Shown piece after piece: positions 12,449-60,152 of a stretch of 64,000 bases of DNA. Source of the DNA: an uncultured virus (IMG/VR IMGVR_UViG_3300037840_000505) (Duplodnaviria > Heunggongvirae > Uroviricota > Caudoviricetes). Under the pieces are notes generated by a model. The model did not search any database. It worked only from the letters and a program-made list of their open reading frames with translations, and was not told where the DNA came from. Location: IMG/VR virus record IMGVR_UViG_3300037840_000505; one strand, written 5' to 3'. The translations under genes were made by a program, and so were the position numbers. The first letter of the stretch is position 1. Every line of letters begins with the position of its first letter.

Positions 12449-13333
12449 ATGATGCGGATTATCCGAGTGTTCCCACGCAAGACCCGCGCGACACCCGACG
12501 ATCCCCTCAGTTATTTTGGACCGCCCGACCTCTTTGCCGAGGCGGACGAAATCCACGTCTCGGTCACCTTTAGCTACGATAAGGTGCGGGCCGAGCAGCT
12601 GGCCGACCAATGGCGCTTTGTTGCTCCGGTGAAGATCGGCGGCGTCGCCTATGGCGATACGAGCCTTGAATTTATCCCCGGTCGTTACATCAAACCCGGT
12701 TACACGATCACTTCGCGCGGCTGCCCGCGCCGCTGCTACTTCTGCGACGTCTGGCGCAAATGGCCCACGACCAACGCGCTGCCGATCCACGATGGCTGGA
12801 ACATCCTCGACGACAACCTTCTCGCCGCGCCGCGTTCCCACGTCGAGGCCGTGTTCGATATGCTGCGACGACAGAAGAAGCGAGATTGGCCGGGCTGGGA
12901 CGGTCGCCTCGAATTCACCGGCGGCTTGGAGGCGCTTGCCCTCGAAGACTACCAAGTAGGATTGCTCGCCAATCTTCGGCCGCGCCCGAATATGTTCTTC
13001 GCCTATGATCCAGGCGACACCTTTGACACGCTGGAAAGCGCCGCGCGACGACTGCTGGCGGCAGGGTTCACGGCGCGCTCGCACCGCCTGCGGTGTTACG
13101 TCCTGATCGGCGGAGCAAAGGACACGTTGGAAAAAGCCGAGATGCGGTTGCGCGCGATGATCGGCCTTGGGTTCACACCCTTTGCAATGCTCTGGAAGCC
13201 GTCGAAACCGGCCGAGGAGCGTCTTCGCCCGGGGCCGGAATGGCACCGGTTCCAGCGCGAATGGGCGCGGCCCGCGATCATCCATGGCGAGATATCCAAA
13301 ATTCATCCTGGGCTGTTCGAAGACGACGCCTAA
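12449..13333 (+). CDS. Radical SAM protein (class B-like N-terminus), antisense to the virion operon
   Basis: SD AGGAGG; TSRGCPRRCYFC (CxxxCxxC), ILDDNLLA, FTGGLEA, VKIGG. Confidence 0.85.
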   Translation: MMRIIRVFPRKTRATPDDPLSYFGPPDLFAEADEIHVSVTFSYDKVRAEQLADQWRFVAPVKIGGVAYGDTSLEFIPGRYIKPGYTITSRGCPRRCYFCDVWRKWPTTNALPIHDGWNILDDNLLAAPRSHVEAVFDMLRRQKKRDWPGWDGRLEFTGGLEALALEDYQVGLLANLRPRPNMFFAYDPGDTFDTLESAARRLLAAGFTARSHRLRCYVLIGGAKDTLEKAEMRLRAMIGLGFTPFAMLWKPSKPAEERLRPGPEWHRFQREWARPAIIHGEISKIHPGLFEDDA

Positions 13334-14241
13334 TACGCCGCCCCCGCATCACAGATTCCACCAATACCACCCCACCCGTATCCGAAGACACCGGGCCCAT
13401 CGCCCCAGCCCCAGCCGCCATAACCAGTGCCTAGACGGCGCGCGGTAATCCATTCCGCTTCCCTGGCGACCGAGGGCCAGCCTTCGTCCCCGTCCCGCAC
13501 CCTAGCCTGGCCGATCGCCTTGGCGGCGATCTGGATATTTTCCGCCCGGATGGCTCGACCCTCTTTCTTGTCCGGGTGGAGGGTCCACATCCTCACCGCG
13601 AGGAGGGCGACGAAGGCTTCCTCGAATAGCGAATCCCACAGGCTCGGATAGGGCACGAACCGGGTATAGACGAGTTCGGCGCAGGAGACGTTGGTCAAGA
13701 TGACCGTGCGCTCGTTGATCGCCTGGCCGCGGAAGTTCCACCATTGGGGGGGCGGACCATCGGGCGACGCGTTCAAGGGATAGTTGGTGTCGTTCGCCAC
13801 CAGCATCCGCGCCGGCATGATGACCGGCGGCGTCTGGAACGGCAGGGCGCCCGTGGTCGGGGGCTGCGGCGGGACGTTGGTGTTGCCCGGAACCCCGGCG
13901 CCTTGCGGGGTTGAATTGTTCCACGGCACGAACCGCGCGGCGAGGCAGTCGATCGGCCAGGCGTATTCGTAGGTCCAGGGCGGAATGACCTGGGTCCCGA
14001 CCCCTTCCTGCTGCTGCTCTTCGGACAGCCAGCCGCACGCCGCGCCGAGGAGCTGCATCGGCGCCTGGGCCCGGGCGAAGTTCCAGTAAGCAGCGCGCAG
14101 CAATTGCTCGAGCGAGGGGATGTAGTGCCGCAGCGCCACCTGGGCCGCTGTCGTGCTCGGACTGCTGAGCGAGCCGATCTGCTGGTCGGAGCAGCCGGCA
14201 TCGTCCAAGGCGCGGTTGACCAAATCCTCGGGGAGTGACAT
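13330..14241 (-). CDS. Tail tubular protein A / head-tail adaptor paralog 1
   Basis: VNRAL...LLRAAYWNFA...YEYAWPIDCL...WDSLFEEAFVALLA. Confidence 0.8.
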   Translation of the reverse strand: MSLPEDLVNRALDDAGCSDQQIGSLSSPSTTAAQVALRHYIPSLEQLLRAAYWNFARAQAPMQLLGAACGWLSEEQQQEGVGTQVIPPWTYEYAWPIDCLAARFVPWNNSTPQGAGVPGNTNVPPQPPTTGALPFQTPPVIMPARMLVANDTNYPLNASPDGPPPQWWNFRGQAINERTVILTNVSCAELVYTRFVPYPSLWDSLFEEAFVALLAVRMWTLHPDKKEGRAIRAENIQIAAKAIGQARVRDGDEGWPSVAREAEWITARRLGTGYGGWGWGDGPGVFGYGWGGIGGICDAGAAY

Positions 14242-14283
14242 TTAGGGCGCTGGATCCTTATCGTCGATTAGGGAGGATTTGAG

Positions 14284-14466
14284 ATGAATCGAGACGATCG
14301 CGCTCGGTTGGCGTTTCTCGCGGGCCATACCTTGGCCTTTGCAATAGTCGCGATCTTTGCCGCGCTAAACGGGCCAGTCCACTATTTAGGGCCGGCCGTC
14401 TTAGCCTTGATCGGGTGCGGTAGTATCGGTTTCGCGGTTTGGGAAAGCCGTCGCTGGACACGTTAA
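14284..14466 (+). CDS. Small two-TM membrane protein (antisense moron)
   Basis: SD GGAGG; two hydrophobic stretches; lower GC. Confidence 0.6.
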   Translation: MNRDDRARLAFLAGHTLAFAIVAIFAALNGPVHYLGPAVLALIGCGSIGFAVWESRRWTR

Positions 14467-14482
14467 ATTACAATAACACCCG

Positions 14483-15142
14483 CTACCCCTGCCGGCTGAC
14501 CGCGACTGCGCGCTCCTCCTGCGCCAGGGCGATATCGACCTTCTGCGCTTCGATCTGCGCCTGGTCGGCGCCGCTGAGGGAGGGCGCGACCCGTCGGCCG
14601 AGCTCGTCGGTCAGGAGCTCGACAAACCCGACATCCCATTGCGTCATGTCGGTCACCTGCCGCAGGTACGTCGCGACCGCCGAAGGGACATAGCACAGGA
14701 TGACCCGCGCTGGCGCATTCTCCTGATCGGGGAGCGGCGTGGCGTCATTGGCGATTTCGTAGGGGTGCGCCGTGGGGAGGAAATTGGGCACGAAATTGAC
14801 CGGCGGGTTGACCGAGCGGATCAGCAGCGCATCTTCCGGGTATTCGTATTCGAAGAGGTAGGGAGGGGGCGGGTTGGTGGCGGGGTTCCACGGCTTGAGC
14901 CCCGGTGCCGAGCCGTAGCCTCCGGACGGCGCCGCTTTGAGGAGCGTCAGATTTGCGTCTCCCCGGGGAAACCCCCAATCACTCTGCCGCAGGATGGCAT
15001 CGCGGGTCTGCGCGTAAAGCGCGAGGAAAGCCTTGGAAGGCTGCGAGCCTTCGAACATAAAGCCGATGCGTTTCCCGCGCCAGCCGAGCTTGACCAGCGC
15101 GATGTTGCAGAGGTCCATGGCGCTGTTGACCGAGGCTACCAT
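14483..15142 (-). CDS. Tail tubular protein A / adaptor paralog 2
   Basis: CNIALVKLG...RDAILRQSDWGF...FEYEYPEDALLIR...WDVGFVELL. Confidence 0.8.
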   Translation of the reverse strand: MVASVNSAMDLCNIALVKLGWRGKRIGFMFEGSQPSKAFLALYAQTRDAILRQSDWGFPRGDANLTLLKAAPSGGYGSAPGLKPWNPATNPPPPYLFEYEYPEDALLIRSVNPPVNFVPNFLPTAHPYEIANDATPLPDQENAPARVILCYVPSAVATYLRQVTDMTQWDVGFVELLTDELGRRVAPSLSGADQAQIEAQKVDIALAQEERAVAVSRQG

Positions 15143-15726
15143 CAGCCGTCCCGCATGATCGCCGCCTGCGTCGTCCGCGCCCCCTGGTCGCCGTATTCAC
15201 GCAGGAGGTCGGGCTTCCCGACCCCCGCCATCGCGAGTTTCGCAGCGATGCCCTGGATGACCGCTTCCTGGAACAAGGCATCCCACAGGGCCTCGGGCGG
15301 CGCGTTGGAGATGCTCGCCATGGCATCGGCGAGAAAGGTCCAGATGACCTTGGTCGGGATCCCGGAGATCGTCCGGTTGCCGACATTGAAATTGGTCGGG
15401 AGCGGGTTGTGCGGATCACCGCCCGAGGGAGGATAGAGATCGCGCACCTCGATCCCCATCGGCGGGTAGAGGTATTCCCGGGTGAAGGGATAGGGCGCGG
15501 ATCCCCCCGATGGGGTGAGGCTCATCAGGTTGAGCGAAAAATCGAACCCGAATTCCCGCCCGACCGCGTAGAAGACTTCCTGGTAGACCGCCCCCGCCGC
15601 GATCCCCAGGGTCGTGTTATCGAAGAGCGGCGGGGTCCCGGTGAGCGGACCCTGATTATTGAACCCGCCGATAAGTTGGATCGCGGCGTTCGCGACCGCG
15701 GCCGGTGTCGTGAAGGCAGCCGCCAT
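15142..15726 (-). CDS. Tail tubular protein A / adaptor paralog 3
   Basis: ANAAIQLIG...GREFGFDF...REYLYP...WDALFQEAVIQGIA. Confidence 0.75.
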   Translation of the reverse strand: MAAAFTTPAAVANAAIQLIGGFNNQGPLTGTPPLFDNTTLGIAAGAVYQEVFYAVGREFGFDFSLNLMSLTPSGGSAPYPFTREYLYPPMGIEVRDLYPPSGGDPHNPLPTNFNVGNRTISGIPTKVIWTFLADAMASISNAPPEALWDALFQEAVIQGIAAKLAMAGVGKPDLLREYGDQGARTTQAAIMRDG

Positions 15727-17193
15727 CTATTGGCAAAGTCCCTGAAGCGTCCATGCCGGAAGCTGGCCGTTGAGCGTGCATATCCACTTCGGCGTCAGTC
15801 CGCTATCACGAGCGATAGCGGTTGACGAAACCTGAGACCAGGGCAGAGCGCCCATCGCATAGGCCGCACTGTTGGTCGGCAACAAAGCGGCAAGGATCGC
15901 GGCCACCTGCGTGCAGGCAAACATCGTCGCCGCGCTCCCGCAGCTCGGCGCCGTCGAAGCTGGCGTGCCGGCAAAGCTGGGTGACTGGCCGAGGATGTTG
16001 CTGTTGCCGTTTGCGAAGCCCAGGAGAGGAGTGTTGGCGCTGGCGTGGTTACCGCCGACGCCGAGGATGAAGTTGTAGTCGGCGGTAACGCTCGTGTCGG
16101 CGTGATAGCTCTCCAGGCCGTAGGCCGGTGCTCCGGTCTGCGTTCCGACCGTTGCTTGAATAAGGTTGCCGCGCGCCTCGGAGAACAAGACTGATACGAA
16201 GTCAATCTCGCCGTCGAAGCCGGGCGACCCGCCGCTCGCGTCTTGCAGGTTTCCGTAGCAAGTGTTGTGGGCATAGACCAGTCGCGCGCCGCCGTTCTGA
16301 CCGCCGTTCGTATAGTTGTTGGCACCATTTACGCAATAGCCGGCGTTGTTGAACAGCACGTTCCCAACAGCAGCACCGAGCCCGTGGTATGGGTTCGCGA
16401 GTGGGGTCTGCGAGCCGTCGAACGTGTCGAACTTCAATCCTCCGTTGTCGGTGTGGCAGGGCGGCGTCGGCAGGCCCGTGCTCCACGCGACGTTATAGGC
16501 GACAAAAATGTGCGCGCCATCGAGGTTGTCGGTGGCCACCGGCTCATAGATGTTGAGGGCGGCGCCGCAGTTGAAAATCTGCCCGGCGCGATAAACGACG
16601 TTGTACCAGAAAGCGGAATAGTCAACGCCCGCCGGCCCGGTCGCGCCAAGGTACGGGACGGCACTGATGCCGTCGCCCTGGCAGATGTTTACGATATTGC
16701 CGACCGCTCCGACGTTGTGGATACTCGTGCTGCTGGTGTTGGGCCAGAAGGTCATGCAGCCGTTGCCGCCAGCGGCCGACGTAAACTCAAAGTTGGTTAC
16801 CACGAAGTTCGAGACGCCGACGGTGATGTTGTAGGTGCTGCTTGACGCGTTCGTGTCGAAACAGCCGTCGTAAACCCACCCGCCCGGCCCGGTACCGCAG
16901 GAAAGAACAACAGCGAGCGACCCATTGGCCGCCGGGCACGTCGCGGGCGCGGTCGTAACCGTGAGGTTGGTTGGCGTGTAGCCGGCTCCTACCGCAGCCC
17001 ATATATTGTCACCGCACGCTGCGCCAGCGGACATTACGCTGTTGAGCGATAACTTCGGGGTCGCAGCGGACGTGCCGTTGTTGCTGTCGCTGCCGGCCGG
17101 CGACATTGCTGCCGTGGCAATGTACCAATTGGCCGCGTGCGCAGGACACGCGAGAACTCCCGCGAGCAGCAGAGCAAGAAGGAACCTCTTCAT
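15727..17193 (-). CDS. Right-handed beta-helix (depolymerase-like) protein with Sec signal peptide
   Basis: MKRFLLALLLAGVLACPAHA/ANWY; GSDSNNGTSAATP motif; Asn-ladder repeats (YNVVY, GNVLFNN, HNTCYGN). Confidence 0.75.
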   Translation of the reverse strand: MKRFLLALLLAGVLACPAHAANWYIATAAMSPAGSDSNNGTSAATPKLSLNSVMSAGAACGDNIWAAVGAGYTPTNLTVTTAPATCPAANGSLAVVLSCGTGPGGWVYDGCFDTNASSSTYNITVGVSNFVVTNFEFTSAAGGNGCMTFWPNTSSTSIHNVGAVGNIVNICQGDGISAVPYLGATGPAGVDYSAFWYNVVYRAGQIFNCGAALNIYEPVATDNLDGAHIFVAYNVAWSTGLPTPPCHTDNGGLKFDTFDGSQTPLANPYHGLGAAVGNVLFNNAGYCVNGANNYTNGGQNGGARLVYAHNTCYGNLQDASGGSPGFDGEIDFVSVLFSEARGNLIQATVGTQTGAPAYGLESYHADTSVTADYNFILGVGGNHASANTPLLGFANGNSNILGQSPSFAGTPASTAPSCGSAATMFACTQVAAILAALLPTNSAAYAMGALPWSQVSSTAIARDSGLTPKWICTLNGQLPAWTLQGLCQ

Positions 17194-17194
17194 T

Positions 17195-17437
17195 CTACTT
17201 GTCCTGCACACAGAAATTGACATCGGTGCGCCTGGAGTAGTCGGTCGGGTCTACCGAACCCCGGATGCTGCCTTTCAACCGCTCGCACTCGGCAGCCGTC
17301 AACGCGTTGATCTGGCTTGTTCGGCCATCGGCCCAGGTGCGCACGAGGGTCCAGTCGCGTGGGCCAGCGTGAAGCGGGTTTTCCTGCGCATGCGCAACCG
17401 AGGCCGCGAGCAGCAGAGCGAGGAGAAGCCGTTTCAT
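17195..17437 (-). CDS. Small secreted protein with two Cys
   Basis: MKRLLLALLLAASVAHA/QEN. Confidence 0.65.
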   Translation of the reverse strand: MKRLLLALLLAASVAHAQENPLHAGPRDWTLVRTWADGRTSQINALTAAECERLKGSIRGSVDPTDYSRRTDVNFCVQDK

Positions 17438-17766
17438 CAATGCGCTCCGGTAAACGTGACGCCCGCGATCGCCGTCGCCTCGGCTTGGCCTTGCAAATAC
17501 TGGAGCCCAAAGGCGTCAAGCGCCTGCGACATGATCTGTGTCGCTTCCGTCCATTCCTGGAGGCTCGTAGGCGAGGCATTGCCGGCGGCGATCAGCGGGG
17601 CTGCAAGAGCCGTATTCAGCAGCGTGGCGTCGGCGGTGCTGATGCAGGTTGTGGCAGTAAGGTTGGCCGGTTGGATCGTGAACGTGATGGTCTGGAACGC
17701 GCAGGCCGCGTAGGCGCCGCGCTCGGCCAGCAAGACGAACAGAGCCGCTATGAGGAGCTTTTTCAT
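17437..17766 (-). CDS. Small secreted protein
   Basis: MKKLLIAALFVLLAERGAYA/AC; TGATG coupling. Confidence 0.65.
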   Translation of the reverse strand: MKKLLIAALFVLLAERGAYAACAFQTITFTIQPANLTATTCISTADATLLNTALAAPLIAAGNASPTSLQEWTEATQIMSQALDAFGLQYLQGQAEATAIAGVTFTGAH

Positions 17767-19820
17767 CAGGTTATCTCTATCAAAATCGCACCGGGAGTGC
17801 CGATACCGCCAGCGTTTGTGCCACCATTCCCAGCGCCGCCACCACCAGAGCAATTTCCCGTTCCACCGTTCCCAGCAACAGCGGTAATGACGCCGGGGCC
17901 ACCCGCACCAAAGGGCGAGGATGCTCCTGTGCCCGTCAGGAAGGCGCCCCCCGCGACGAGCACTATTGCCGACTGACCTGTGTTGCCTAAAATGTTTATG
18001 GTGCCGTTCGTCGGAACGGTCCCTCCGAAGCCGCCGAGAGCCGCCCCAAGAGCAACGGTTGACACGGTTCCGCCAGCACTGCCGCCAGGTGCAGTATAGG
18101 TCACGCCGTTGATTGTGATCGTCGTACTATTGCTAGCGGCGCCAATCGCGTATGTGATCGCGGTGTTGGGCTGAAGGCCAAGTGCCGCCGCCGTCCCTTC
18201 CAGGATAAGGACCGCCCCCGAGCCGCCACCCGAACCGATCTGCGCTGTGGCTCCCGCACCGCCTGGGCCTCCGCCACCGCAAGCCGTGATCTTGACATTG
18301 CTGTAAGCGGTGATCGTTGGTGGACTAGTCCAAGTCGTGCCTGAAACGAGGAAAATCGAATAAGCGTGGCTGCACGGCACCGGGAGTTGCGAGCAGAAAA
18401 TCTTGGCATCGGCACTCGTTGGCACGACGCCGCTGTCTCCGAGCTGCCCATTCGCGCCGATGGCGATGTCGTGCCCCTCGGAGTTCGCGAGCGCACCGAC
18501 GTAGTAATTCCCGGCGGCGAGAGTGTTTGCGCCGCGATCCGTAGCCGTGCCAACCTCGACGCCGCCCGTCTGATTGACCGTCAGCGCTGTGACCGGGGTG
18601 TTCTGCACGGTCGCCGCAGCCCCCGGCGGGGCAGTCTGCACGACGATGTTGCCGCCAATGCCGGAGCCAGTGCCCTTGCTACCGGCGATCGTCCAATTCG
18701 CGCCCGCAGTGTTGCTCGTGCCAGCGACGACGTTCTGCGCGTTGAGAGTCTGCGCGACGGGGGAGGCAGCATCGGCGTTGCCTAGTTGAAGGTTCGCGGC
18801 GGCATGCCGTGACAAGATTAAATCACCAGAACCCCCAAATTTCAGAACACCTCCGTTTCCAGTAAATCCTATGTTAACGCCGGATGTAATCCCTCCCTTT
18901 GATAAAACATCACCAAATTGATCGACATTGAAATAGCTTGTCGCGCCGCTCGCGCCGCCGAGTATGTTTAGCAGGTTAGCAGATGCCCCTTGTGCAGTTT
19001 CAGTCACCGAAATCTGAAACGCAGTTGGGCTTCCGCTCGTGTTCCACGTCGTCGCAAAGTTCCAGTCCGTCGTCGCATCTGAGCCAGTGTGCGAGCCGCC
19101 CGTCGCTGAGAGCATCTGCGTATTGGCGGCGACACCGGACAGGGTGAGCGCCTTGCCAGCGATGAGCGTACCGGTGATGGCAGCTGGCGTTGTCCCGCCG
19201 ATGATTGAGCCGTTGATCCCGCCCGATCCCCAGGTGCCGCTATCAGGGCCAGTCACGGTTCCGCTGAAAGTTGGCGACGCGAGCGGTGCGAAGGCCGTCG
19301 AGTTGAAAGCGTTGGAACCCAGCGCGCCGCCTGCGCCCGACGAGGTGATCGCGGCCCCGGCGCCGATGGTCACATTTCCGAATATGTTCGCGCCGGTGAA
19401 GGTCTGCCCGGCGTCCGTCCGCGCCAAGGTCGCGCTGGTCGTTGGCCCCGTCCACACAACTGCACCCGCAGGCCCAGCCAAGGTAATGCCGCCAGCGCCA
19501 GTTGTTGTAAATGCCCCACCAAGCACAAGAGCTTTGCCGCCGACGCTGTTGACGGTCGCCGCTACTGCCCCTGATCCCGACGCCGTGACATCTCCTGTCA
19601 GCGAAGTGATGCCGCTTCCGCTTCCGCAGACCGATCCGGCGTCCTCGAGAACAGGGCCCGAAGCGCTCAAGACCTGGGTGCAGTCTCCCGGTGTGGCCTT
19701 TCCGCTCCAGCCGACGCTCGAACCCGGTATCCCGCCATCAGGCATCTGGGCATGGGAAGGGCCCGAGACACACAAGAACACCGCCAGGGCACTCGCCAGG
19801 GCGGCTGGGAAGCAGCGCAT
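17766..19820 (-). CDS. Tail fibre-like protein with C-terminal glycine-rich domain and signal peptide
   Basis: Gly/Thr/Ser-rich; LTGDVT and APLASPTFSG fibre motifs; C-terminal TWTSP...CGGGGPGG; N-terminus ...VSGPSHA/QMP. Confidence 0.8.
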   Translation of the reverse strand: MRCFPAALASALAVFLCVSGPSHAQMPDGGIPGSSVGWSGKATPGDCTQVLSASGPVLEDAGSVCGSGSGITSLTGDVTASGSGAVAATVNSVGGKALVLGGAFTTTGAGGITLAGPAGAVVWTGPTTSATLARTDAGQTFTGANIFGNVTIGAGAAITSSGAGGALGSNAFNSTAFAPLASPTFSGTVTGPDSGTWGSGGINGSIIGGTTPAAITGTLIAGKALTLSGVAANTQMLSATGGSHTGSDATTDWNFATTWNTSGSPTAFQISVTETAQGASANLLNILGGASGATSYFNVDQFGDVLSKGGITSGVNIGFTGNGGVLKFGGSGDLILSRHAAANLQLGNADAASPVAQTLNAQNVVAGTSNTAGANWTIAGSKGTGSGIGGNIVVQTAPPGAAATVQNTPVTALTVNQTGGVEVGTATDRGANTLAAGNYYVGALANSEGHDIAIGANGQLGDSGVVPTSADAKIFCSQLPVPCSHAYSIFLVSGTTWTSPPTITAYSNVKITACGGGGPGGAGATAQIGSGGGSGAVLILEGTAAALGLQPNTAITYAIGAASNSTTITINGVTYTAPGGSAGGTVSTVALGAALGGFGGTVPTNGTINILGNTGQSAIVLVAGGAFLTGTGASSPFGAGGPGVITAVAGNGGTGNCSGGGGAGNGGTNAGGIGTPGAILIEIT

Positions 19821-19850
19821 CTGCCTATTTCCCTTCGAAAGCCGGCACGG

Positions 19851-22628
19851 TCAGGACCGCCGGCACCACATCTGCCCCTGCCAGGTCGGGTTCGTCGAAC
19901 CGCCCGTCCAGGCAACTTTGGCGTTGAGATATTCGAGCGTTTGCGAGGCGAGCGAAAGCGGGGTCGCGTTGATCGGCAAGGAATTGGCGACCGCACCTGT
20001 GGTAAACGTCAGATTGAGCAGGTTTTCCGCCACCCCGGCGTTCAAGCTGGTCGCGGCCGCGGCGATGCTCGCGGCGATTACCGTCGGCGCGGTGCTGGCG
20101 ACGCCGTTTTCATAGGCGCTGGCCGCGCATGTCCAATTGCCGCCCGCGAGGTTGATCACCACGATCGGCTGGGTCGTGCCGCTTGTGGTGTCGTAAGCGC
20201 TGGCGATGCCCGTCCCGCTGTCCGTACCGGTCGTGGCCACATCGGTTCCGGAGAGCGCATTGGCGACCGAGGTCGCGACCGAGAAGGTGCTGCCGCTGAT
20301 CGAGGCGGGATCGACGAAATAGGCCGTGTTGTTGCTGATGCCGACGCCGGAAAGACCCGTGAAGTAGATCGGCAGCACGCATTGGTTGAGGCTGCCCGCC
20401 GTGATTGAACATCGGGAGGCGAAGGTGTTGGCGGGCATCGTCACGACGGCCGGCGTCGCGTGGCTGATCGTTACCGCGATGCTTTCCGCATTGGCGGTCG
20501 CCGAGACGATTTCGCCGACATATCCGTTGCCGGGGCTCACGCCGACCGAGCTGCCGACAATCCCCCCGTCCGTTTGAAGGAATTTATTGGTGCCCGAGGG
20601 GTTGTCGCTGTAGCAGGTCGTCGGACCATAGGTCGGATCGCAGATGTTTCCGACGATCGAATAGTGGCTCTGCGCCGCCCCGCCGGTCGCAATGTTGATG
20701 CCGGTGGTGCCCCCGGCGAAAGCTCCGATCGATGAGCCAAGCGTGTTGTGGCCGATCGTAAATACCGTCATTCCTGGGGCAACGTAGAAACCGCCAAGTT
20801 GCATGGAGGCGCATACGTTATCCATGATGATGACGCCGCGACCCGATTCGTGATAGACGCAATAAGAGCCGCCGCTGAAATTCCCGCCGATGATCTGCGT
20901 GTCGCCGAGCCAGCTCGTTTCGGTGATGACCCCGGCGCCGAACGTCGTCACCGTCGAGCCGTATTGATTGTCGGTCAGCGTGGCGGCATCGCCCTGCAAC
21001 AGCCACACATCGGCCTGGTAGGCGGAGAATGTATCATGATCCAGGTAAATGCTGCCCGGTCCGCTGGACTGCGATCCCGTGTTCAGCGTGACGACGGACG
21101 CGGTGTATGGACCGGAGATATCCGTTCCGTCATCGATATACTGAACGGTTGCGACACTCGCGGGACTTGCCGAGGTATCAAGCTGCACCCCGTAATAGGT
21201 CTGCGGCGCCCATAAATTCCAGTGGCAGGTTCCGTCAAACATCGCCGTGCCGTAAGGCTGGAGAGCCGGCACGGACCCCGATGACGTGCAGCCCGACTGA
21301 TCGTTCAATTGGAGGTAAACGGGATTGCCGCCGATCGTCGCGGTGTAAACGTTGCAGGCATTGCCGCTGGTATAGGTGTGATTGTTTTGACGGGCGGTAT
21401 TCGAGAACCCGTAGGGCAGATTGTAGCCACCGCAGTTCGATGCCGTGGTGGTCTGGTCGATCTTGTCCCGGTGCATGTAGAACGCGCCGGAGGTCGAGAG
21501 AACGACCGCCGAGCCGTAGGCATAATCAAATTTCGAATTTACTACGACGGCATCGGAAGTCTGGTTGTCGAGGGCATTGCTGCCCCCCTCGATCGTCGAA
21601 TCCTCGATGATGCAGCCGACGCAACTGGAGCCGAGCGTTACCGCGTTCCCCGTTGGAAGAGTGTTGGTTCCAACGAGGGCCGGCCCCAGGATCTGCATGT
21701 CGCGGATCGTCGATCGGGGCCCGCTCAGATTTAAGGTCGTGACGTTGTTCGACCCCGTGCCGCTCGAATTGCCGCATTGGCCGGTGATGTTGCCGGCTTG
21801 GAGGATCGTCGCCTTCTGGCCCGCGCCGGCAATGACGAGGGAATGGCTCCCATCGGTAACGAGGCCGACCCCGGTGCCGCCGACACAGTAATTGCCCGGC
21901 GGGAAGTAAAGGATAGCCCCGCCGAGCGCCTGTGCGGCGTTGATCGCCGCCTGGATCTGCACCGTGTCATCGGTCGACGCGTTGCCGTGCGCGCCGTAGG
22001 CCTTGACATCGACCCAGGGATAGCCAGAGGCGAAATAGTGGTCGCCCGTCCAAATCGGGTTGATCGCCTGGCTGAGCGCCGGCGCCGCGTCCGACCGCAT
22101 CGCGGTCGGGGCGACGCCGTCAATCGGGGTGAGGCCGATGAGGTTTGACGGGTTGGCGAAACTGACCCCGCCAAAGCACGAGCCCGGCAGGGTGCAGACC
22201 GAACCATTGACATCGATGGTGAGCGGTTCGGGCGTCGCTCCCGAGCCGAAGGTCCCGACCGCGATGAGTGGTCCACCATTCAGCGCATTGGCGTCAAAGG
22301 CAAGATAATGGCCGCCGATCCCCTGGGAATTCTGCTGCGGGGTATCGTAGAGCGCGACATGCGTGCCAAAGGGCCCCGATCCCGAGGAGGCGCAGGGGAA
22401 AACCGGGCATTGCGAGACCTGCAGGAGTTCGGAGAGGCCCAGTCCCTGCGCGCCGCCCCCGGCCCCCCCGCTGTCCTGGATGACGGTCTGGCCGAACGAG
22501 GATTGATACATCGGCACATGGCCGAACGTCGGGATCCCCTGCTGGAGGACCGACCCTTGCGCCCAGGCCGCGGAGAGGCCCAGAACCAAAAAGAGCGCCG
22601 CGAGGGGCGCTCTCATCAAACCGGTCAT
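19851..22628 (-). CDS. Tailspike / pectate-lyase-like beta-helix protein with signal peptide
   Basis: SD AGGAG; VDVKAYGAHGNASTDDTVQIQAAINAA...LYFPPGNY; N-terminus ...LGLSAAWA/QGS. Confidence 0.85.
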   Translation of the reverse strand: MTGLMRAPLAALFLVLGLSAAWAQGSVLQQGIPTFGHVPMYQSSFGQTVIQDSGGAGGGAQGLGLSELLQVSQCPVFPCASSGSGPFGTHVALYDTPQQNSQGIGGHYLAFDANALNGGPLIAVGTFGSGATPEPLTIDVNGSVCTLPGSCFGGVSFANPSNLIGLTPIDGVAPTAMRSDAAPALSQAINPIWTGDHYFASGYPWVDVKAYGAHGNASTDDTVQIQAAINAAQALGGAILYFPPGNYCVGGTGVGLVTDGSHSLVIAGAGQKATILQAGNITGQCGNSSGTGSNNVTTLNLSGPRSTIRDMQILGPALVGTNTLPTGNAVTLGSSCVGCIIEDSTIEGGSNALDNQTSDAVVVNSKFDYAYGSAVVLSTSGAFYMHRDKIDQTTTASNCGGYNLPYGFSNTARQNNHTYTSGNACNVYTATIGGNPVYLQLNDQSGCTSSGSVPALQPYGTAMFDGTCHWNLWAPQTYYGVQLDTSASPASVATVQYIDDGTDISGPYTASVVTLNTGSQSSGPGSIYLDHDTFSAYQADVWLLQGDAATLTDNQYGSTVTTFGAGVITETSWLGDTQIIGGNFSGGSYCVYHESGRGVIIMDNVCASMQLGGFYVAPGMTVFTIGHNTLGSSIGAFAGGTTGINIATGGAAQSHYSIVGNICDPTYGPTTCYSDNPSGTNKFLQTDGGIVGSSVGVSPGNGYVGEIVSATANAESIAVTISHATPAVVTMPANTFASRCSITAGSLNQCVLPIYFTGLSGVGISNNTAYFVDPASISGSTFSVATSVANALSGTDVATTGTDSGTGIASAYDTTSGTTQPIVVINLAGGNWTCAASAYENGVASTAPTVIAASIAAAATSLNAGVAENLLNLTFTTGAVANSLPINATPLSLASQTLEYLNAKVAWTGGSTNPTWQGQMWCRRS

Positions 22629-22641
22629 CGGAGCTGTTCTC

Positions 22642-22854
22642 CTACCGCGGCTTGGCGCCGCCGAGGCCCGGCACATACGCCGGATTGTCGCCGGGATTGA
22701 TCCGCTCGATATGGGTCCGGGGGTCATGGGCGTCGTGGCCGCCCGTCGTGGTCGTGCCGTCGAGCGGCCAGGTCTGACGCACGGCATCCTTCTTGACAAA
22801 GCGGCCCTTGACGCGCACGCGCACCGGTTTCGGCGCAGAATCGGCGATGCTCAT
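22642..22854 (-). CDS. Hypothetical protein
   Basis: 70 aa; ATGA overlap. Confidence 0.5.
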   Translation of the reverse strand: MSIADSAPKPVRVRVKGRFVKKDAVRQTWPLDGTTTTGGHDAHDPRTHIERINPGDNPAYVPGLGGAKPR

Positions 22855-23120
22855 GCGGCTGCCTCCAAATCCTCGTCAAGGCAGACCGGCACACCATCGA
22901 AGGCGGGAAGACCGTCGGGATCAGCGGTCTCGAGTTCGACCTTGTGGTAGCGCAGCGCAGCGAAATCGAGCCACGCCAGCGCTCCTCGATCGAGGATGTA
23001 GCGCTTCGGCTGTGCCACGCCCTGGGCGAGAGCCGCCCCCATTGCCGGGAAGGGATCGACGTCGATGCGCATATCGATCGCGATCTTGATCCCATCGGTC
23101 ATTTCGAGAACGGCGTTCAT
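22851..23120 (-). CDS. Hypothetical protein
   Basis: ATG 23120 overlaps the upstream stop; SD GGAGG. Confidence 0.55.
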   Translation of the reverse strand: MNAVLEMTDGIKIAIDMRIDVDPFPAMGAALAQGVAQPKRYILDRGALAWLDFAALRYHKVELETADPDGLPAFDGVPVCLDEDLEAAA

Positions 23121-23644
23121 GCGAGTGCCTCCGCTTCTTCGGTTTCGTCCTCGACCGCCATCTCGACGATCTGCAGCGTCAGCGACTTGCCGTCCCACTG
23201 CCTGTCGTCGACCGACTTCACCCTTGCTTCGCCGATCAGGTGCAGCATGTGGCCGACCTCGCATTCTTCGTCGAGATCGAGGCGCTCGTGATCGTTTTCG
23301 TCCATGCAGATGCAAGGGCGACACATCTGGTCCAATTCGACCATGTCGCCGTCGCCCAAGGAGAGCATGTCGAATTCGGCCTCGACCCGGCAGCTATCCG
23401 CCTGGTGCGAACAGCTGGTGACCCGCGCGAAGGCGGCGAAGCGCACCTCGTCCCCGCCCTTGGCGCCGCTGATCCCGAGGTTCTCGAAATCAGCCTCGCG
23501 CACGGTGAAGCAGAGGCCCGGCGGGTATTCCGGCGGCTCATCGGCCGCCGGTGCGTGGCCGAACATGCCGCGATCCTTCAGCCAGTCGATCTGCTCGTCG
23601 TCGCTGAGCGCCATCGACGCGAGCTTCTTGAAGGGACCCGCCAT
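23117..23644 (-). CDS. Putative capsid-associated (staple-like) protein with two tandem repeats
   Basis: YPPGLCFTVREADFENLG...GDEVRF...ARVTSCS repeated as CRPCICMDENDHERLDL...GHMLHL...ARVKSV...LQIVEM. Confidence 0.55.
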   Translation of the reverse strand: MAGPFKKLASMALSDDEQIDWLKDRGMFGHAPAADEPPEYPPGLCFTVREADFENLGISGAKGGDEVRFAAFARVTSCSHQADSCRVEAEFDMLSLGDGDMVELDQMCRPCICMDENDHERLDLDEECEVGHMLHLIGEARVKSVDDRQWDGKSLTLQIVEMAVEDETEEAEALA

Positions 23645-23646
23645 GG

Positions 23647-23982
23647 CTAGGCCGCTTTCTCGGCGCCCTCGCCGTCGCTCTCGGCCGTCTCGCCGCCCAT
23701 TTCGGCCATGTGGCGCTTTTCCATGTCCGCCATCTCGGCCTCGTGCTCCTTGTGCATGTCGTCCATGGCCTCGCGGTGGCGCCCGTGCATGTCGCGCCGC
23801 GCCATCCGGTGGCGCTTGTGCATCGCCTCGCGCTCGTCCTTGTGGCGCCCCGTCATCTCATGGTCGCCCATGCCCTCGCGGCGCTCGGGGCGGCGCTCGG
23901 GTTCGGGTTTCGATTCCTCGCGCTTCGGCTCTTCGCGCTCTTCCCCTTTGTGGTAGCGGTTCTTTGCTTTGTCGTCGGCCAT
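23647..23982 (-). CDS. Charged His/Met-rich helical-repeat protein
   Basis: About 11-residue repeats of RH..E...M. Confidence 0.7.
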   Translation of the reverse strand: MADDKAKNRYHKGEEREEPKREESKPEPERRPERREGMGDHEMTGRHKDEREAMHKRHRMARRDMHGRHREAMDDMHKEHEAEMADMEKRHMAEMGGETAESDGEGAEKAA

Positions 23983-23996
23983 GGCTCTTGAACTCC

Positions 23997-24263
23997 CTAT
24001 CGCTTGCCGTAGCGGCGTTTGGCGGCACCGTGATGCCAGCCTTCCATGGTCTGGGCGCGGATGGCGTCGCGGCGGATTTCGGGGCTGCGGGAATGCGTCG
24101 CGGTCTCGATCCGCGCCGCGCCGATCGGCTTATCGGGATCGACCCCGAGCTCCCGGTGCAATTTCCCCTTCTGGCCTCCCGGGTGGAAATCCTTCTTCGG
24201 GACCCATTTGTGCTTTCGCGCCATCGCTGGTCTCCGCGCGGTATCGAGGAGGGTCGGGGTCAC
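23997..24263 (-). CDS. Small basic head-module protein (alternative start ATG 24224)
   Basis: KGKLHRELGV...KPI motif; ends AAKRRYGKR. Confidence 0.7.
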   Translation of the reverse strand: MTPTLLDTARRPAMARKHKWVPKKDFHPGGQKGKLHRELGVDPDKPIGAARIETATHSRSPEIRRDAIRAQTMEGWHHGAAKRRYGKR

Positions 24264-24487
24264 GTCCTAGGCCGCGAGACCTTGTGGCGAGAATTGCCCC
24301 GGAAATGCTTGCCGTAGTGCTTGCCGTGGCTCTCGGCCGTCATCAGCGCTCGGTGCTGGTCCGCGGTCACATCGGCAAGGTGGTAGAGGCCGCCATCATG
24401 GAAATCGACGGCGAGCGTGTTGGTCGCGGGATCATGGCCAATTGCCCGGATACTCGAGGATTTGACCGGGATCAATTTTTGCATCAT
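24260..24487 (-). CDS. KTSC domain protein
   Basis: PVKSSSIRAIGHDPATNTLAVDFHDGGLYH...ALMTAESHGKHY. Confidence 0.9.
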   Translation of the reverse strand: MMQKLIPVKSSSIRAIGHDPATNTLAVDFHDGGLYHLADVTADQHRALMTAESHGKHYGKHFRGNSRHKVSRPRT

Positions 24488-24529
24488 CGTTGCCCCGGAC
24501 GGCGCGGATTTCTGCCGCATTTCGAGCAA

Positions 24530-24545
24530 TGTTTCACGGGAAACA
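24530..24545. promoter_or_regulatory. parS-like palindrome
   Basis: TGTTTCACGGGAAACA, 15/16 match to chromosomal parS TGTTTCACGTGAAACA; intergenic. Confidence 0.7.
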
Positions 24546-24546
24546 T

Positions 24547-24780
24547 TCAGCCGCCGTAGCGCTTCGACGCGGCGCTTTCGCCCTCGCTTTTCGCGGCCTT
24601 GGGCTTGGCGCCGTAGCGGTGCGCGGCGTTGCCGATCTTGTTTCCCGTCGCGATCGCTTCGCCTTCCGGGACGCCCTTGGCGATCATCGCCTGGGCGACA
24701 TCGCGCGCCTTGGTGGCGGCATCGCCCTTGAGTTTCTTGTTGTGTCTCTCGGCAAAATCCTTGCCGCTGCGCCAGGGCAT
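24547..24780 (-). CDS. Small basic head-module protein
   Basis: MPW...VAQAMIAKGVPEGEAIATG; ends ASKRYGG. Confidence 0.7.
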   Translation of the reverse strand: MPWRSGKDFAERHNKKLKGDAATKARDVAQAMIAKGVPEGEAIATGNKIGNAAHRYGAKPKAAKSEGESAASKRYGG

Positions 24781-25074
24781 CTACTGGCGCCAGCGTTTCT
24801 CGGCTAAGAGGAACCCGAAGAGCGGCCAGAGCTCCGCGAAGGCGTTGTCCCAGGCGATCTTTTCGCCGATCTCGCGGTTATAGTTCGCCGGATCGACGCA
24901 AGCGCTTTCGCCGGTAACGACGAAGCCATTGTCCAGATGCAGAGAACAGTGAGTGAGCGTGGGTCCGAGCCGGTGAAACTTTACCTCGCCGATCCGGCCT
25001 TCCATGTACTCTTTCGTGACGCGCTCGCCCGGCAGTTTTTCAAGGGCGGCGCGCAGTTCATCCTGGTCCATCAT
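24781..25074 (-). CDS. Gp49/Sf6 gp66 family protein (candidate Acb4-type cyclic-nucleotide sponge)
   Basis: LTHCSLHLDNGFVVTGESACVDPANYNREIGEKIAWDNAFAELWPLFGFLL. Confidence 0.85.
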   Translation of the reverse strand: MMDQDELRAALEKLPGERVTKEYMEGRIGEVKFHRLGPTLTHCSLHLDNGFVVTGESACVDPANYNREIGEKIAWDNAFAELWPLFGFLLAEKRWRQ

Positions 25075-25162
25075 TGGAAATTCACTCCGGAAAGCACAAG
25101 AGGACGAAGAGATACCCGGCGGCGACAATCATGATCGCCGCCGGGATAGCCCAGGGAGGCAA

Positions 25163-26482
25163 TTAGAGTTCGGCCGAGGCCTCGATCTTGCCGGTGCCGC
25201 CGTCGTCACCCCAGACCGCGGCGGTCGAGGCGGCGCTGAACCCGGCCGAGGAGGCGCAGTCCATCATGACGCCGAAGGTGTTGGCGGCATTGCCGGTCGG
25301 CACCGAAGCGGTGGTGTTGCCGGTGCATTGGACCGCGGTCGCGACGTTCAAGGCGGCGAAACCGGTCACATAGGTCATCGTCGGCGCGGCGCGCATCGGC
25401 ACCGGGAAGACGACGTTGCACAGCGCGATCGAGGTCGTATCGATCTCGCACATGCCGCGCTGGGTGAAGGCCGCCCCTTCGGTGATCTGGTAGTAGTAGC
25501 GGTATTGCAGAAGGGCTTCCAATTCGTTGTTGCGCGAGCGGTCGAACGAGGAACAGTTGAGAACCAAGCCCGAAGACCCCGTGCCGCCCGTATTGAGGCT
25601 GCAGAGATACCCCGTCGAGGCCGCGACATAGGGTGCGGCGCTCGAATTGCGGATCAGCTGGATGCCGGCGAAGGCGGCGTAATCCGTCGCGCCGGCGGTC
25701 CCGACCGGGGTGTCGCAGAGGACGACCGCGGCTTCGAGCGCACCGGTTGGGATCGTCGCCACTACCCCGTAGCGCCCGGCCGAGGCGTTGATCGGGATGA
25801 CGGGCGAGGCGGCATTGGCCTGGCCGGTCCAGCCCTGTGACCCGCCGCCCCCGGCATTGACGCCAAAGGCAAGGTCGGAGGCACCCTCGTTGGCGACCGT
25901 CCCGGTGACGATATAGGCGTTGAAGACATCGCCCGCCGAGGCCGCCGTCGCTCCCTCGATCGCATGGAAATCGAGTTCGACCGTCGTTCCCTGCATCTGG
26001 TAGACGTTTGGCGTCTCGATGATCTGCGCCATGCACATCTGCACAACGCCGGTCTGCCCCGAGGTGCGCGCCATCTTGTAGGCGTATTCGTACCCCGTCG
26101 CGGGAAGATCGGCCGCGGTCGAATCGCGGCTGACCGTCATCGCGGTCGAGGTCCCGGACCAATAGAACCAGCGGTCGGGACCGCCATAGGTCGCGGTCGT
26201 GGTGACCGAGGCCCCTGTGGTCCCGCGCTGGAAGAGGTTCTGCGTCGCGTCCCCGGCGATCAGAAGGTTCGATTTCGCCGGGAGCTGGCCGTTATACCCC
26301 GCCAGGTTGAGGCAGGTGATATAGGTCGAATAGGGCTGCGCGATGCCGCCGACGATATCCTGGATGAGATCGCCCGGCCCGCAGGTGGTGACGAGGTTGG
26401 GTGCCGGGACCTGCGCCTCGGCCAGCGGAGCCAGACCGAAAAGCAGCGCCGCGAAGGCGAGCGTGCATGTGAGCTTCTTCAT
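25163..26482 (-). CDS. Fibre/decoration-like protein with Sec signal peptide
   Basis: MKKLTCTLAFAALLFGLAPLAEA/QVP; NLLIAGD...FQRG...DRW and ALLQYRYY...FPVPMRAAPT fibre-domain motifs. Confidence 0.75.
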   Translation of the reverse strand: MKKLTCTLAFAALLFGLAPLAEAQVPAPNLVTTCGPGDLIQDIVGGIAQPYSTYITCLNLAGYNGQLPAKSNLLIAGDATQNLFQRGTTGASVTTTATYGGPDRWFYWSGTSTAMTVSRDSTAADLPATGYEYAYKMARTSGQTGVVQMCMAQIIETPNVYQMQGTTVELDFHAIEGATAASAGDVFNAYIVTGTVANEGASDLAFGVNAGGGGSQGWTGQANAASPVIPINASAGRYGVVATIPTGALEAAVVLCDTPVGTAGATDYAAFAGIQLIRNSSAAPYVAASTGYLCSLNTGGTGSSGLVLNCSSFDRSRNNELEALLQYRYYYQITEGAAFTQRGMCEIDTTSIALCNVVFPVPMRAAPTMTYVTGFAALNVATAVQCTGNTTASVPTGNAANTFGVMMDCASSAGFSAASTAAVWGDDGGTGKIEASAEL

Positions 26483-26911
26483 GGTACAGTTCTCCGGTTG
26501 GTCAGGAGGCGAAACGATGAGCGGGATGGTGGAACGAGTAGCGCGGGCCGCTTACCTTGAGTATTCGGGCTCCGATCCCGAATCCGAATACGCCTGGTGG
26601 TACGGCAAAGATGAAGGGCAACCCTACGATTGGCGGAAAGAAGCAGACCGAACGTCAGTCGAAGCGGAAGGTTTTCTGCGTTGCGCTCGCGCCGCCATCG
26701 CGGCCATGCGCGAGCCGACCGAGGCTATGATCGAGGCTGGCCGCGTGCGAGGACTGGACGATGGCGGTGTCGAGGGCCGCTGGCGTGCGATGATCGATGC
26801 CGAGCTTGCGGACTAGCTGAGCTACTGATAAAGCAGCGCCGCGAAGGCGAGCGTGCGTGTGAGCTTCTTCATGGTACAGTTCTCCGGTTGGTCAGGAGGC
26901 GAAAACGATGA
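26440..26911. repeat. Direct repeat of 81/82 bp (26440-26520 and 26830-26911)
   Basis: AAAGCAGCGCCGCGAAGGCGAGCGTGC[A/G]TGTGAGCTTCTTCATGGTACAGTTCTCCGGTTGGTCAGGAGGCGAAA(A)CGATGA; one substitution and one indel. Confidence 0.95.
26517..26816 (+). CDS. Hypothetical moron protein
   Basis: SD AGGAGG; MVERVARA...ARAAIAAMREPTEAMI...WRAMIDA pattern common in alphaproteobacterial phages. Confidence 0.75.
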   Translation: MSGMVERVARAAYLEYSGSDPESEYAWWYGKDEGQPYDWRKEADRTSVEAEGFLRCARAAIAAMREPTEAMIEAGRVRGLDDGGVEGRWRAMIDAELAD

Positions 26912-27099
26912 AATGGCTTTTGGTGTCAGCAGTGTTGACCCATTGCTGGTATTGCTGGTTGCCGGGCGTATCGAGCTATCGCTTCGACGTCGTCAAATCT
27001 TTCGAAAGCAGCGAGGACTGCCTTAAAGCGACAGAATCCGCGCGTCCCGGGCGCATCGCGTTCTGCGCACCGTCCTCGGCTTTGTCGCCCGATCCTTAG
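26908..27099 (+). CDS. Small secreted Cys-containing moron protein
   Basis: SD AGGAGG; MKWLLV...FESSEDC...AFC. Confidence 0.65.
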   Translation: MKWLLVSAVLTHCWYCWLPGVSSYRFDVVKSFESSEDCLKATESARPGRIAFCAPSSALSPDP

Positions 27100-27836
27100 T
27101 TGTATAAGGGCCGGCAGTAGACGCGGATATCGGCCGTCGCGGGAGCGCCCTGGGCGGTTCCCAGGTTGAAGTAGATCGTCCCGAGATTGAGTTCGTTGTT
27201 GGTCCCGGCCGTGCTGATCGTCGCCAGCATCGCCGAGCCGCTGGCGTTGAGCGCGGCGCCGGTCAAGGTCGAATAGACCTGGGTCGCCGCGACCAGCGCC
27301 GTGCCGCCTTGCGATTTCGCGGAATAAAACCCGCCCTCCGCCGCGGTGAGCGAGATGCTCGCGTTCGACAGCGTGATCGAAGCGAGCATATAGTTGGCGC
27401 TCGGCACGAGGATGGTGATCGGCTGGTCGACCGAGGCCTCGTTCATATTGGCGCCGAGGAGCTCGCCGCACTGGATCGAGGTCGGCGCGAAGGTATTCCA
27501 CGGGGTCGAAGGGAACTGGAACCCGGTGAGTCCGGTCCCCTGGGCGTGCAGAGCATCAACGTCCAGCGCACCGAAGATGCCCAGCATTGAAAGAACAACT
27601 GCGATGCGGAGCACGGAGATCACGACCGAGCTTTCGCCGGTCGACGAGGCGGCTTCCATCGCGAGATGATTGACGGGATGATCCACGCTCGGTCGCCGCA
27701 ACCGCTTCAGCCAGCGCAGAAAGGCGAGGACCGGGTTAAAACCCAAAATGGCCGCCGCCATGAAAAGAAAGATCAGGGCGACCAAGAAGATCGCCGCCAC
27801 GACGAATGGAACCGAGATCAAGGAAAAAGACAGCAT
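27096..27836 (-). CDS. Membrane-anchored or secreted virion-module protein
   Basis: N-terminal TM, then a second hydrophobic segment ending ALHA/QGT, then a beta-rich domain. Confidence 0.7.
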   Translation of the reverse strand: MLSFSLISVPFVVAAIFLVALIFLFMAAAILGFNPVLAFLRWLKRLRRPSVDHPVNHLAMEAASSTGESSVVISVLRIAVVLSMLGIFGALDVDALHAQGTGLTGFQFPSTPWNTFAPTSIQCGELLGANMNEASVDQPITILVPSANYMLASITLSNASISLTAAEGGFYSAKSQGGTALVAATQVYSTLTGAALNASGSAMLATISTAGTNNELNLGTIYFNLGTAQGAPATADIRVYCRPLYN

Positions 27837-27854: not shown

Positions 27855-28748
27855 TTAGCTCGGCGGGATGCCCCAGGCGGTCGCGGCGATGCCGGTCGCG
27901 CTGAAGCGCCAGTTGATCTTGACGTTGGTGACGGCGGAATAGACGAGGCAGTTCCAGCGCCACAGCACCCCTTGCTCGGGTTCCGAGACGACGGCCGAGT
28001 AGGGCGTGTTCGCGGTATACTGCGCGAGCTGGCCGCCGCCCCCGACATTGCAGGGAACGCTCGTCTTGCCGCCGTCGAGGCTGCGCTCCAACTGCACCGT
28101 CGCGTTGAATTCGACCCCGGCCCCGGTGAACTCGGCCGCGTTGTCGGTGCCGGTCGTGATCGCCTGGCTGGAGAGCGCGAAGGTGAAGGTCAGATTCTGG
28201 TTGAGGCCGCCGGTCGGGACACAGGGAGCCGAAAGGCCGACAATGCCCGGCTGGGTCGGGGTCGAAGCCTGGAGGATAGCGGCGACCGTCGTCCCGGCGG
28301 GTATTCCAGCGGCGACCGGTCCGGTGACCGTCGCACCCAAGAGGTTCGCCGTTTCCGCGAGGCCCGAGATGACCGCGAGGCCGCCCGGTGTGGTGCTGGG
28401 GCTGTTGCCGATGTTCCCCGTCAGTTGAATAGAAGGAAGCGCCAAAACGGCCGAAGTGCCGCTGAGGCTCGCCAGGGTGGTCCCGGGCGGGACGTTTTTG
28501 CTGTTGATCCCGGCCCCTGCCGCAAGGCCGGTGCCCGACCCGAGAGTGGCGTTGAGCGACCCTTCGGTCGTCTCGAGCGAGGTATTGAGGGTCGCATAGC
28601 AGAGTGCGTTGAAGGCGCCGTAGAGCGGGGTCCACATGCCGGGCCCGACCGCGCCGAAAGTCCCCGAGGCGACAAGGTTCGCCTGTTCCCCCAAAGAGGG
28701 GTCCGGGGTTCCGAGCCCCGCGGCCCCGGCAGCGGCTGGAATGCCCAT
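27855..28748 (-). CDS. Putative capsid decoration/head fibre protein
   Basis: Gly/Thr-rich with IPAGTTV repeats; ATVQLERSLDGG motif. Confidence 0.65.
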   Translation of the reverse strand: MGIPAAAGAAGLGTPDPSLGEQANLVASGTFGAVGPGMWTPLYGAFNALCYATLNTSLETTEGSLNATLGSGTGLAAGAGINSKNVPPGTTLASLSGTSAVLALPSIQLTGNIGNSPSTTPGGLAVISGLAETANLLGATVTGPVAAGIPAGTTVAAILQASTPTQPGIVGLSAPCVPTGGLNQNLTFTFALSSQAITTGTDNAAEFTGAGVEFNATVQLERSLDGGKTSVPCNVGGGGQLAQYTANTPYSAVVSEPEQGVLWRWNCLVYSAVTNVKINWRFSATGIAATAWGIPPS

Positions 28749-30358: not shown

Positions 30359-30407
30359 GGGATATCCTCCGGTTGAACGGAAACCTGAATTGTCGGGGTG
30401 CGCAGCT

Positions 30408-59112: not shown

Positions 59113-59263
59113 GGCGCCCTCGCGTGCTTGATGCCGCGGGCGTTGAAGCCGTGCAGCGCCTTGGCGAGCCCGACAACGGCGCCGAAGACCGCCGCGCAGA
59201 AGATCGCGCCGATGACGACGAAGGTCAGCAGCCATCGCGCCGCATCGGCGAGGAGCGGGATCA

Positions 59264-59830: not shown

Positions 59831-59848
59831 GGGTTCAGTCCTTTCGGT

Positions 59849-60100: not shown

Positions 60101-60152
60101 GACCGATCCTTTCGGGTTGAGGTGCGTCAGGCAAACGGTGGATCATCGATGT

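Follow-up and report, generated by a model that had tools for sequence, protein, structure and literature searches.

The uncultured virus record IMGVR_UViG_3300037840_000505 was analyzed as one stretch of 64,000 nucleotides, referred to here as the window. Its gene content marks it as a podophage of the epsilon15/BPP-1/Carin-1 type, nearly complete and circularly permuted. The two sequencing runs that contain it are soil metagenomes, its possible source, and no RNA run was listed as containing it. An earlier note, made from the letters alone, had reported basic, hydrophobic leaders ending in AxA on genes between positions 15727 and 27836. Seven open reading frames (ORFs) with their starts and motifs were verified there:

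15727..17193, minus: predicted exported right-handed beta-helix, Pel9A/DUF1565-like, 14 Cys, with no recognizable fiber anchor
17195..17437, minus: small predicted exported protein, 63 amino acids (aa) mature, 2 Cys, no family match
17437..17766, minus: small predicted exported protein, 89 aa mature, 2 Cys, no family match
17766..19820, minus: Gly-rich fiber with a predicted 24-aa leader and 6 Cys; its body modules are common to leaderless phage fibers
19851..22628, minus: tailspike-like protein with a predicted 23-aa Sec leader, Gln at +1, a conserved ~120-aa N-domain (candidate virion anchor), a pectate-lyase-type beta-helix and 20 Cys
25163..26482, minus: predicted exported head-fiber-like protein, with a short fiber-type N motif, a carbohydrate-binding module (CBM) jelly-roll and 10 Cys
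27096..27836, minus: decoration-type protein with an N-terminal transmembrane (TM) segment, a predicted internal leader and one Cys pair

The starts, by which the proteins are named below, lie at 17193, 17437, 17766, 19820, 22628 (or 22616), 26482 and 27836. In that order, the cleavage motifs are PAHA/A, VAHA/Q, GAYA/A, PSHA/Q, AAWA/Q, LAEA/Q and ALHA/Q. Shine-Dalgarno (SD) motifs precede the starts at 22628, 26482, 27836 and 19820, and those at 17766, 17437 and 17193 are backed by stop/start overlap or abutment. The 22628 protein matches the PHROG tail spike family (E 7e-9) and PF12708. The Atlas structural lead for 19820 is PF21722 Gly_rich_2 in viral clusters (score 0.89), and 17193 matches bacterial beta-helix clusters (score 0.97) and has no homolog in the loci compared, except L001. 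The 26482 model is of low confidence (pLDDT 50) and matches CBMs, including those of the tailspikes K2-2 TSP and CBA120 TSP4, at E ~1e-4; its alignment gave no PDB sequence match. Judged by its position, the 17766 protein is possibly a periplasmic helper of fiber assembly.

Leaders were called by a crude rule of our own for the n-, h- and c-regions rather than by SignalP, and because the rule misses some leaders visible by eye, the counts are conservative. It passes six of the 14 called genes inside 15727..27836 compared to four of 66 outside (Fisher p 0.0014), and shuffling the first 60 residues gave 1-26 passes per 300. None of 114 homologs of leaderless core structural proteins pass, nor do any of 40 proteins, five tailspikes among them, that were chosen from six cultured relatives. 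The earlier statement that portal, capsid, nozzle and adaptors are leaderless holds. The six proteins that pass have the hallmarks of substrates of Sec and signal peptidase I (SPase I): a basic n-region, a hydrophobic h-region and small residues at -3 and -1. The 27836 protein is atypical and fails the rule. It begins with a TM segment and a basic stretch, followed by a second hydrophobic segment that ends in ALHA/Q at residue 98; its close homologs have ordinary leaders. A regular-expression search found no lipobox or twin-Arg motif in the seven proteins.

The leaders are conserved. A profile built from the mature N-domain of 22628, without the leader, matched 646 clusters at 50% identity, and the best 150 supply all counts of N-domain homologs below. 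A leader stands at the annotated start in 130 and is recovered from a later start in 13, for a total of 143 of 150. Of the seven that fail, three have their start annotated at an internal Met, and the other four look leader-like by eye. Gln occupies +1 in 141 of the 150, and Ala occupies -3 in 127. Among the best 120 of 493 homologs of 26482, 112 pass the rule. The Q-rule paper (PMC5837995) concerns Bacteroidetes, and the available part of it has no word beginning with 'proteobacteria' or 'phage'. Because that work deals with Bacteroidetes, pyroglutamate at the Gln of these phage proteins is something we infer.

Translation could instead begin at the downstream Met of an H-x-P-M-Y motif, which would leave ordinary leaderless fibers. 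Three of the 150 entries are called from this Met, and it is kept in 127. Yet it is replaced in 23, the residues upstream of it are nearly invariant, and the n/h/c pattern is kept while the leader sequence varies. Moreover, of 17 genes, 11 have an SD-like motif of four or more bases upstream of the leader start, and none has one upstream of the internal codon. Downstream true starts, which had been named as a way for the export proposal to fail, are not favored, and an artifact of this kind is very improbable.

The second line of evidence comes from Cys residues. The earlier note had described many Cys, which is true of 17193, 22628 and 26482 (2.2-3.1%) and not of 19820 (1.2%) or 27836 (0.8%); the signal lies in parity. 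From 17193 to 27836, the mature proteins have 14, 2, 2, 6, 20, 10 and 2 Cys, all even. The number is even in 136 of the 150 N-domain homologs (88 of 94 with one per C-terminal cluster), compared to 42 of 103 Cys-containing leaderless core proteins (Fisher 3e-16), 11 Cys-free proteins having been set aside from a control of 114. In the best 120 of 493 homologs of 26482, it is even in all 120. Two Cys of the N-domain co-occur in 150 of 150 homologs, and the window's own protein has Ala at the two positions.

Leader and Cys pair covary in three families. In the 27836 family (119 of 206 matches), 36 of 41 homologs with a leader have an aligned Cys pair, as do 7 of 78 without a leader. For 19820 (119 of 266 matches), homologs with a leader at the annotated start are even in 20 cases and odd in one, and leaderless homologs comprise 33 even, 36 odd and 25 Cys-free proteins, a tally that omits four homologs passing the rule only from a later start. 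Within a small decoration family, Cys is absent from three leaderless members, and an aligned pair is present in two members with a leader.

These patterns bear on the possibility that virions are finished at the inner membrane before lysis, or that part of the protein escapes export, uncut or slowly processed, assembles in the cytoplasm and is oxidized by air after release. The true N-terminal TM segment of 27836 would suit such a scheme, and according to the available text of PMC13314943, disulfides are possible in phage-tail-like machines built in the cytoplasm (AlgoCIS Alg11). The AxA cleavage sites are, however, strongly conserved. Oxidation by air after lysis also does not predict that leaderless core proteins lack the even-Cys bias and that leaderless homologs lack the pair. 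We consider this explanation improbable. Taken alone, Sec export and disulfide bonding of the leader-bearing proteins are very probable on their sequences.

Whether these proteins become part of the virion is a separate matter, and the surrounding genes bear on it. PHROG and Pfam scans of the window recovered an epsilon15/BPP-1-like morphogenesis module with a GP7-type capsid, Bbp16 cement, portal, tubular A/B tail and ejection proteins, as well as a terminase. The closest cultured relatives of the capsid are <39% identical. The other features of the window used here are:

1-3903, resuming to 62982 with LPD38, minus: giant ejection/polyvalent protein, interrupted solely by the window ends
9233..12418, minus: nozzle, 1061 aa, leaderless (phrog_376)
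13330..15726, minus: three leaderless adaptor (tail tubular A-like) paralogs, candidate docking rings (phrog_394 in all three)
23117..23644, minus: epsilon15 gp10-like protein, leaderless (PF21628)
27855..28748, minus: leaderless beta-rich protein kept in the same slot across relatives, candidate cytoplasmic docking base on the capsid
29843-30358, minus: Bbp16-type cement, leaderless (PF21190)
31125-32168, minus: GP7-type major capsid protein, leaderless (PF20911)
34360..36204, minus: portal, leaderless (PF12236)
58193..62042, minus: probable lysis region, with TM proteins, lipoprotein-like ORFs, a class-3 lipase and a hydrolase-like ORF at 60897-61532

The leader-bearing genes lie inside this morphogenesis block, between cement and adaptor, and are translationally coupled to the adaptor. 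This is the position of the head-spike base of Carin1. In the relatives G002, G006 and G008, leader-bearing fiber-like genes also fill the slot after the giant ejection gene where a tailspike usually lies. The earlier note saw no leaderless tail fiber in the window, and indeed the only leaderless products of fiber-like composition are the nozzle, an ejection protein and the 27855-28748 protein. The family of the latter has a leader in 0 of 9 homologs, and its single INPHARED match, to Mae-Yong1326-1, is weak (E 8e-4); six genes of that phage were inspected and have no leaders.

The usual anchor is missing as well. Pfam PF03906 was dropped as a probe since it detected only two of five positive controls, and a profile of the leaderless anchor was built from five cultured phages instead (leave-one-out recovery at E 1e-19 to 1e-37). 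It found no leaderless epsilon15-type anchor at E<1e-3 in the window or in seven relatives rated 97-100% complete (G003-G006, G002, G008 and G009). A weak stray match occurs in L030 (E 0.004-0.14).

The N-domain behaves as a candidate replacement. The C-termini behind it are highly variable (94 clusters among 134). In 66 homologs scanned for domains behind it, 14 had a match, comprising the S74 chaperone in six, pectate lyase in five, beta-helix in three, a YadA head in one and a Gly-rich domain in one; the other 52 had none. The S74 domains suggest that these proteins form trimers. PHROG tail-fiber matches were obtained for P0007 and P0018, and three leaderless proteins likewise begin with the opening 36-aa module of the N-domain. 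Of 18 metagenome loci with the N-domain, 12 carry phage structural genes and the other six are <=4.3 kb; all seven loci of >=7 kb are phage morphogenesis loci. A sample of 800 further alphaproteobacterial genomes yielded no copy of the N-domain, whose sole match in a bacterial genome is a prophage in Rhizobium sp. BK313 (L033), and because of this match an alphaproteobacterial host is likely for the window phage. Cultured phages in INPHARED had no match to the N-domain, to 26482, to a leaderless 27836 homolog or to the small decoration family. Leaderless 27836 homologs lie between capsid/cement and adaptor genes in four of ten loci viewed (L066, L078, L080 and L096), and in most of the remaining loci they occupy other phage structural or tail positions. 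In L136 (8708-9229) and L032 (9902-10441), short leader-bearing genes of 173-179 aa with 4 Cys consist almost wholly of the N-domain and may be stand-alone adaptors for neighboring exported proteins.

The proteins could also be exported and never join the virion, acting as free depolymerases or lectins at lysis or being displayed on the infected or lysogenic cell, while the virion adsorbs through its enlarged nozzle or the leaderless 27855 protein. The nozzle is 1061 aa in the window compared to 830 aa in Carin1, and across the loci listed it exceeds that of Carin1 by 230-610 aa; one family member is a prophage, and 17193 resembles a secreted bacterial beta-helix with no anchor. The 17193 protein is the best candidate, on its sequence, for a free or loosely bound depolymerase, so that the free-depolymerase option of the earlier note fits this gene best. 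For the others, this explanation sits poorly with their place in the morphogenesis block and their coupling to the adaptor. The leaderless homologs of the same modules are phage decorations and fibers, the N-domain is no host gene family in the genomes sampled, and there is no lipobox or obvious membrane anchor. With the normal tailspike absent, the podophage would be left with no other evident receptor-binding protein. Overall, we regard export to a role off the virion as unlikely.

Because of the gene slot, the fiber modules and the absent normal tailspike anchor, we favor attachment to the virion at or after lysis and consider assembly in two compartments probable. The capsid, portal, three adaptor rings, nozzle and ejection proteins would be made and assembled in the cytoplasm. 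From the same late gene block, receptor-binding fibers and spikes and some head decorations would be exported by Sec. SPase I would then cut the leaders, mostly leaving Gln at +1, and the fibers would fold in the periplasm with disulfides made by the host. Upon lysis, the inner membrane would open, the cytoplasmic and periplasmic pools would mix, and the conserved N-domain would bind the fibers to the completed particle, in place of the leaderless epsilon15/T7-type anchor. Of the interpretation in the earlier note, the conserved leaders, the controlled Cys parity and the covariation lend strong support to export and oxidative folding, and attachment at or after lysis is the favored reading.

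Several observations weigh against assembly in two compartments. Virion docking is proposed from sequence and gene position, and the homologs share kinship, so the p values overstate their independence. The N-domain model (pLDDT 86) matches no known anchor fold, with a best E of 0.11 in BFVD and a best Z of 2.6 across the PDB; a predicted complex of the N-domain trimer with the adaptor at 15142-15726 scored 0.02 and is uninformative. No Dsb-like gene was detected among the 67 window proteins scanned. Some relatives keep leaderless fiber-like genes (L005 6899, L030 7491 and 9375, L031 10972, L136 5826 and G009 2388, with 1, 7, 0, 11 (partial), 1 and 1 Cys, respectively), and export is therefore not obligatory for every appendage of the family. 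In addition, the available text of PMC10769870 describes the MAT fibers of Bdellovibrio as surface adhesins with a signal peptide, a conserved ~130-aa beta domain, a variable phage-like trimeric fiber, S74 and some disulfides. This is the plan of the window fibers, and it also speaks for a role off the virion; because MAT adhesins share it, architecture alone is no proof of a virion anchor. The MAT genes are chromosomal, whereas the window genes lie in a phage morphogenesis block. Compared to C-terminal MAT fragments, the N-domain gave Z of only 2.1-2.2.

A precedent in virions comes from the cultured Cellulophaga phages phi18:3 and phi10:1. Among 21 structural proteins examined that are annotated by mass spectrometry (MS), seven pass the leader rule, mostly with Gln at or next to +1. 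GenBank lists these proteins (phi18:3 gp085-087 and phi10:1 gp091-094) as detected by tandem MS. Leader-bearing genes occupy 2892-8584 of L058 (phi18:3 gp85-87) and 21848-28879 of L059 (phi10:1 gp91-95). The precedent is limited, and these limits also tell against the proposal: the Cellulophaga proteins are non-homologous to the window family, have 0-3 Cys and come from Bacteroidetes hosts, and MS on purified particles may include co-purifying proteins. Our literature search found no paper discussing the leaders of the phi18:3 and phi10:1 proteins. Another candidate for a precedent was rejected. Pseudomonas phage A1002 gp41 has ~30 N-terminal residues absent from the virion map in the available text of PMC13730344, but the same-length gene of KPP25, of the same genus, has no hydrophobic leader. 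PMC13266070, in its available part, concerns a membrane protein and not fibers.

Other observations on the window concern its ends, its tail and its lysis genes. The full record is 65,283 bases long. The window begins and ends within the giant LPD38 ejection gene, whose reading frame stays open at each end, and the 1.3 kb beyond the window presumably belong to that gene. Family loci that span the region have three adaptor paralogs and L007 has five; cultured relatives viewed annotate one. The multiple paralogs (13330-15726 in the window; also L007 and L008) suggest stacked tail rings. Small highly charged proteins, including the gp10-like and KTSC proteins, are encoded at 23117-24780 (minus) between decoration and fiber genes, family-wide. 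Opposite-strand inserts in the morphogenesis block lie at 11546-13333, 30258-31190 and 26343-26816 (all plus) and comprise a radical-SAM-like gene, an HNH endonuclease and an unknown ORF. The large terminase is split over two ORFs (minus), an ATPase at 37565-39040, whose N-terminal half looks duplicated, and a nuclease at 36781-37563. A SpoU rRNA methylase-like gene at 62225-62740 (minus) occupies the tailspike slot of relatives. In the probable lysis region, the class-3 lipase (PF01764) at 58193-58900 (minus), at the end of the gene run, is the sole family match, and holin, endolysin and spanin assignments there are putative. Beside it, 57582-58076 (plus) encodes an exported-type 6-Cys protein with the motif 'DHxxPLCLGG..NRWPQ', which we take to be HNH-like, and no Pfam match; G006 has a similar leader-bearing protein at 52923. 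A scan of the window for promoters and terminators stayed at chance level.

The reducing cytoplasm is regarded as the sole site of tailed-phage assembly. At least 646 clusters of leader-bearing, Cys-paired fibers without the normal anchor imply a second assembly compartment and infectivity that depends on host Sec and Dsb. It seems somewhat likely that, in a widespread clade of soil podophages of alphaproteobacteria, the main adsorption apparatus of fibers, spikes and head decorations has moved to the periplasm, where it is disulfide-locked after Sec export, and snaps on at lysis through a new anchor fold on stacked adaptor rings. If docking at lysis were shown, this would be a new assembly pathway. 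Lysis would become a morphogenetic step, and, outside the cytoplasm, particles could share or exchange fibers. Leader-bearing phage genes, which at present are probably taken for morons or secreted enzymes, would be annotated differently, and failed cytoplasmic expression of such receptor-binding proteins would be explained. The family would also supply naturally secreted, disulfide-stabilized depolymerases and lectins. The Rhizobium sp. BK313 prophage makes the question directly testable in an isolate. The fiber folds are known, and the export route appears undescribed in the literature searched: no exported tailed-phage fiber was described in the title or abstract start of the papers found, in a search that misses most subscription papers, and the available part of PMC3556154 held nothing relevant to such fibers.

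Compared to known systems, the window family is closest to the phages of epsilon15 gp20, Carin1 Dpo31, HTVC010P gp22, JessA gp38c and CP2 ORF25, with the same set of capsid, cement, portal, adaptor, nozzle and ejection proteins. Carin1 Dpo31 binds the tail by its N-terminal D1, according to the available text of PMC13317679. The window family also follows the plan of epsilon15/T7-type tailspikes, a conserved N-domain followed by a variable beta-helix, fiber or S74 part. It differs in that epsilon15, Carin-1 and BPP-1 spikes are leaderless with a common anchor, which our profile did not find in the window or in the seven complete relatives. This family also has at least three adaptor paralogs, whereas the epsilon15-type records viewed annotate one. 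Outside the tailed phages, Ff pIII binds the receptor as part of the virion, has a Sec leader and forms its disulfides in the periplasm. The routing in the window would be as in pIII, but Ff leaves the cell by extrusion across the membrane, with no lysis, and pIII is anchored in a membrane, whereas the window capsid is tailed and would be built in the cytoplasm. Spikes can dock after lysis, as the P22 tailspike is added to finished heads outside the cell; our literature search found no paper on this addition. The P22 tailspike is leaderless and cytoplasmic. The late docking proposed here would thus resemble that of P22, with fibers that, unlike the P22 spike, carry a leader.

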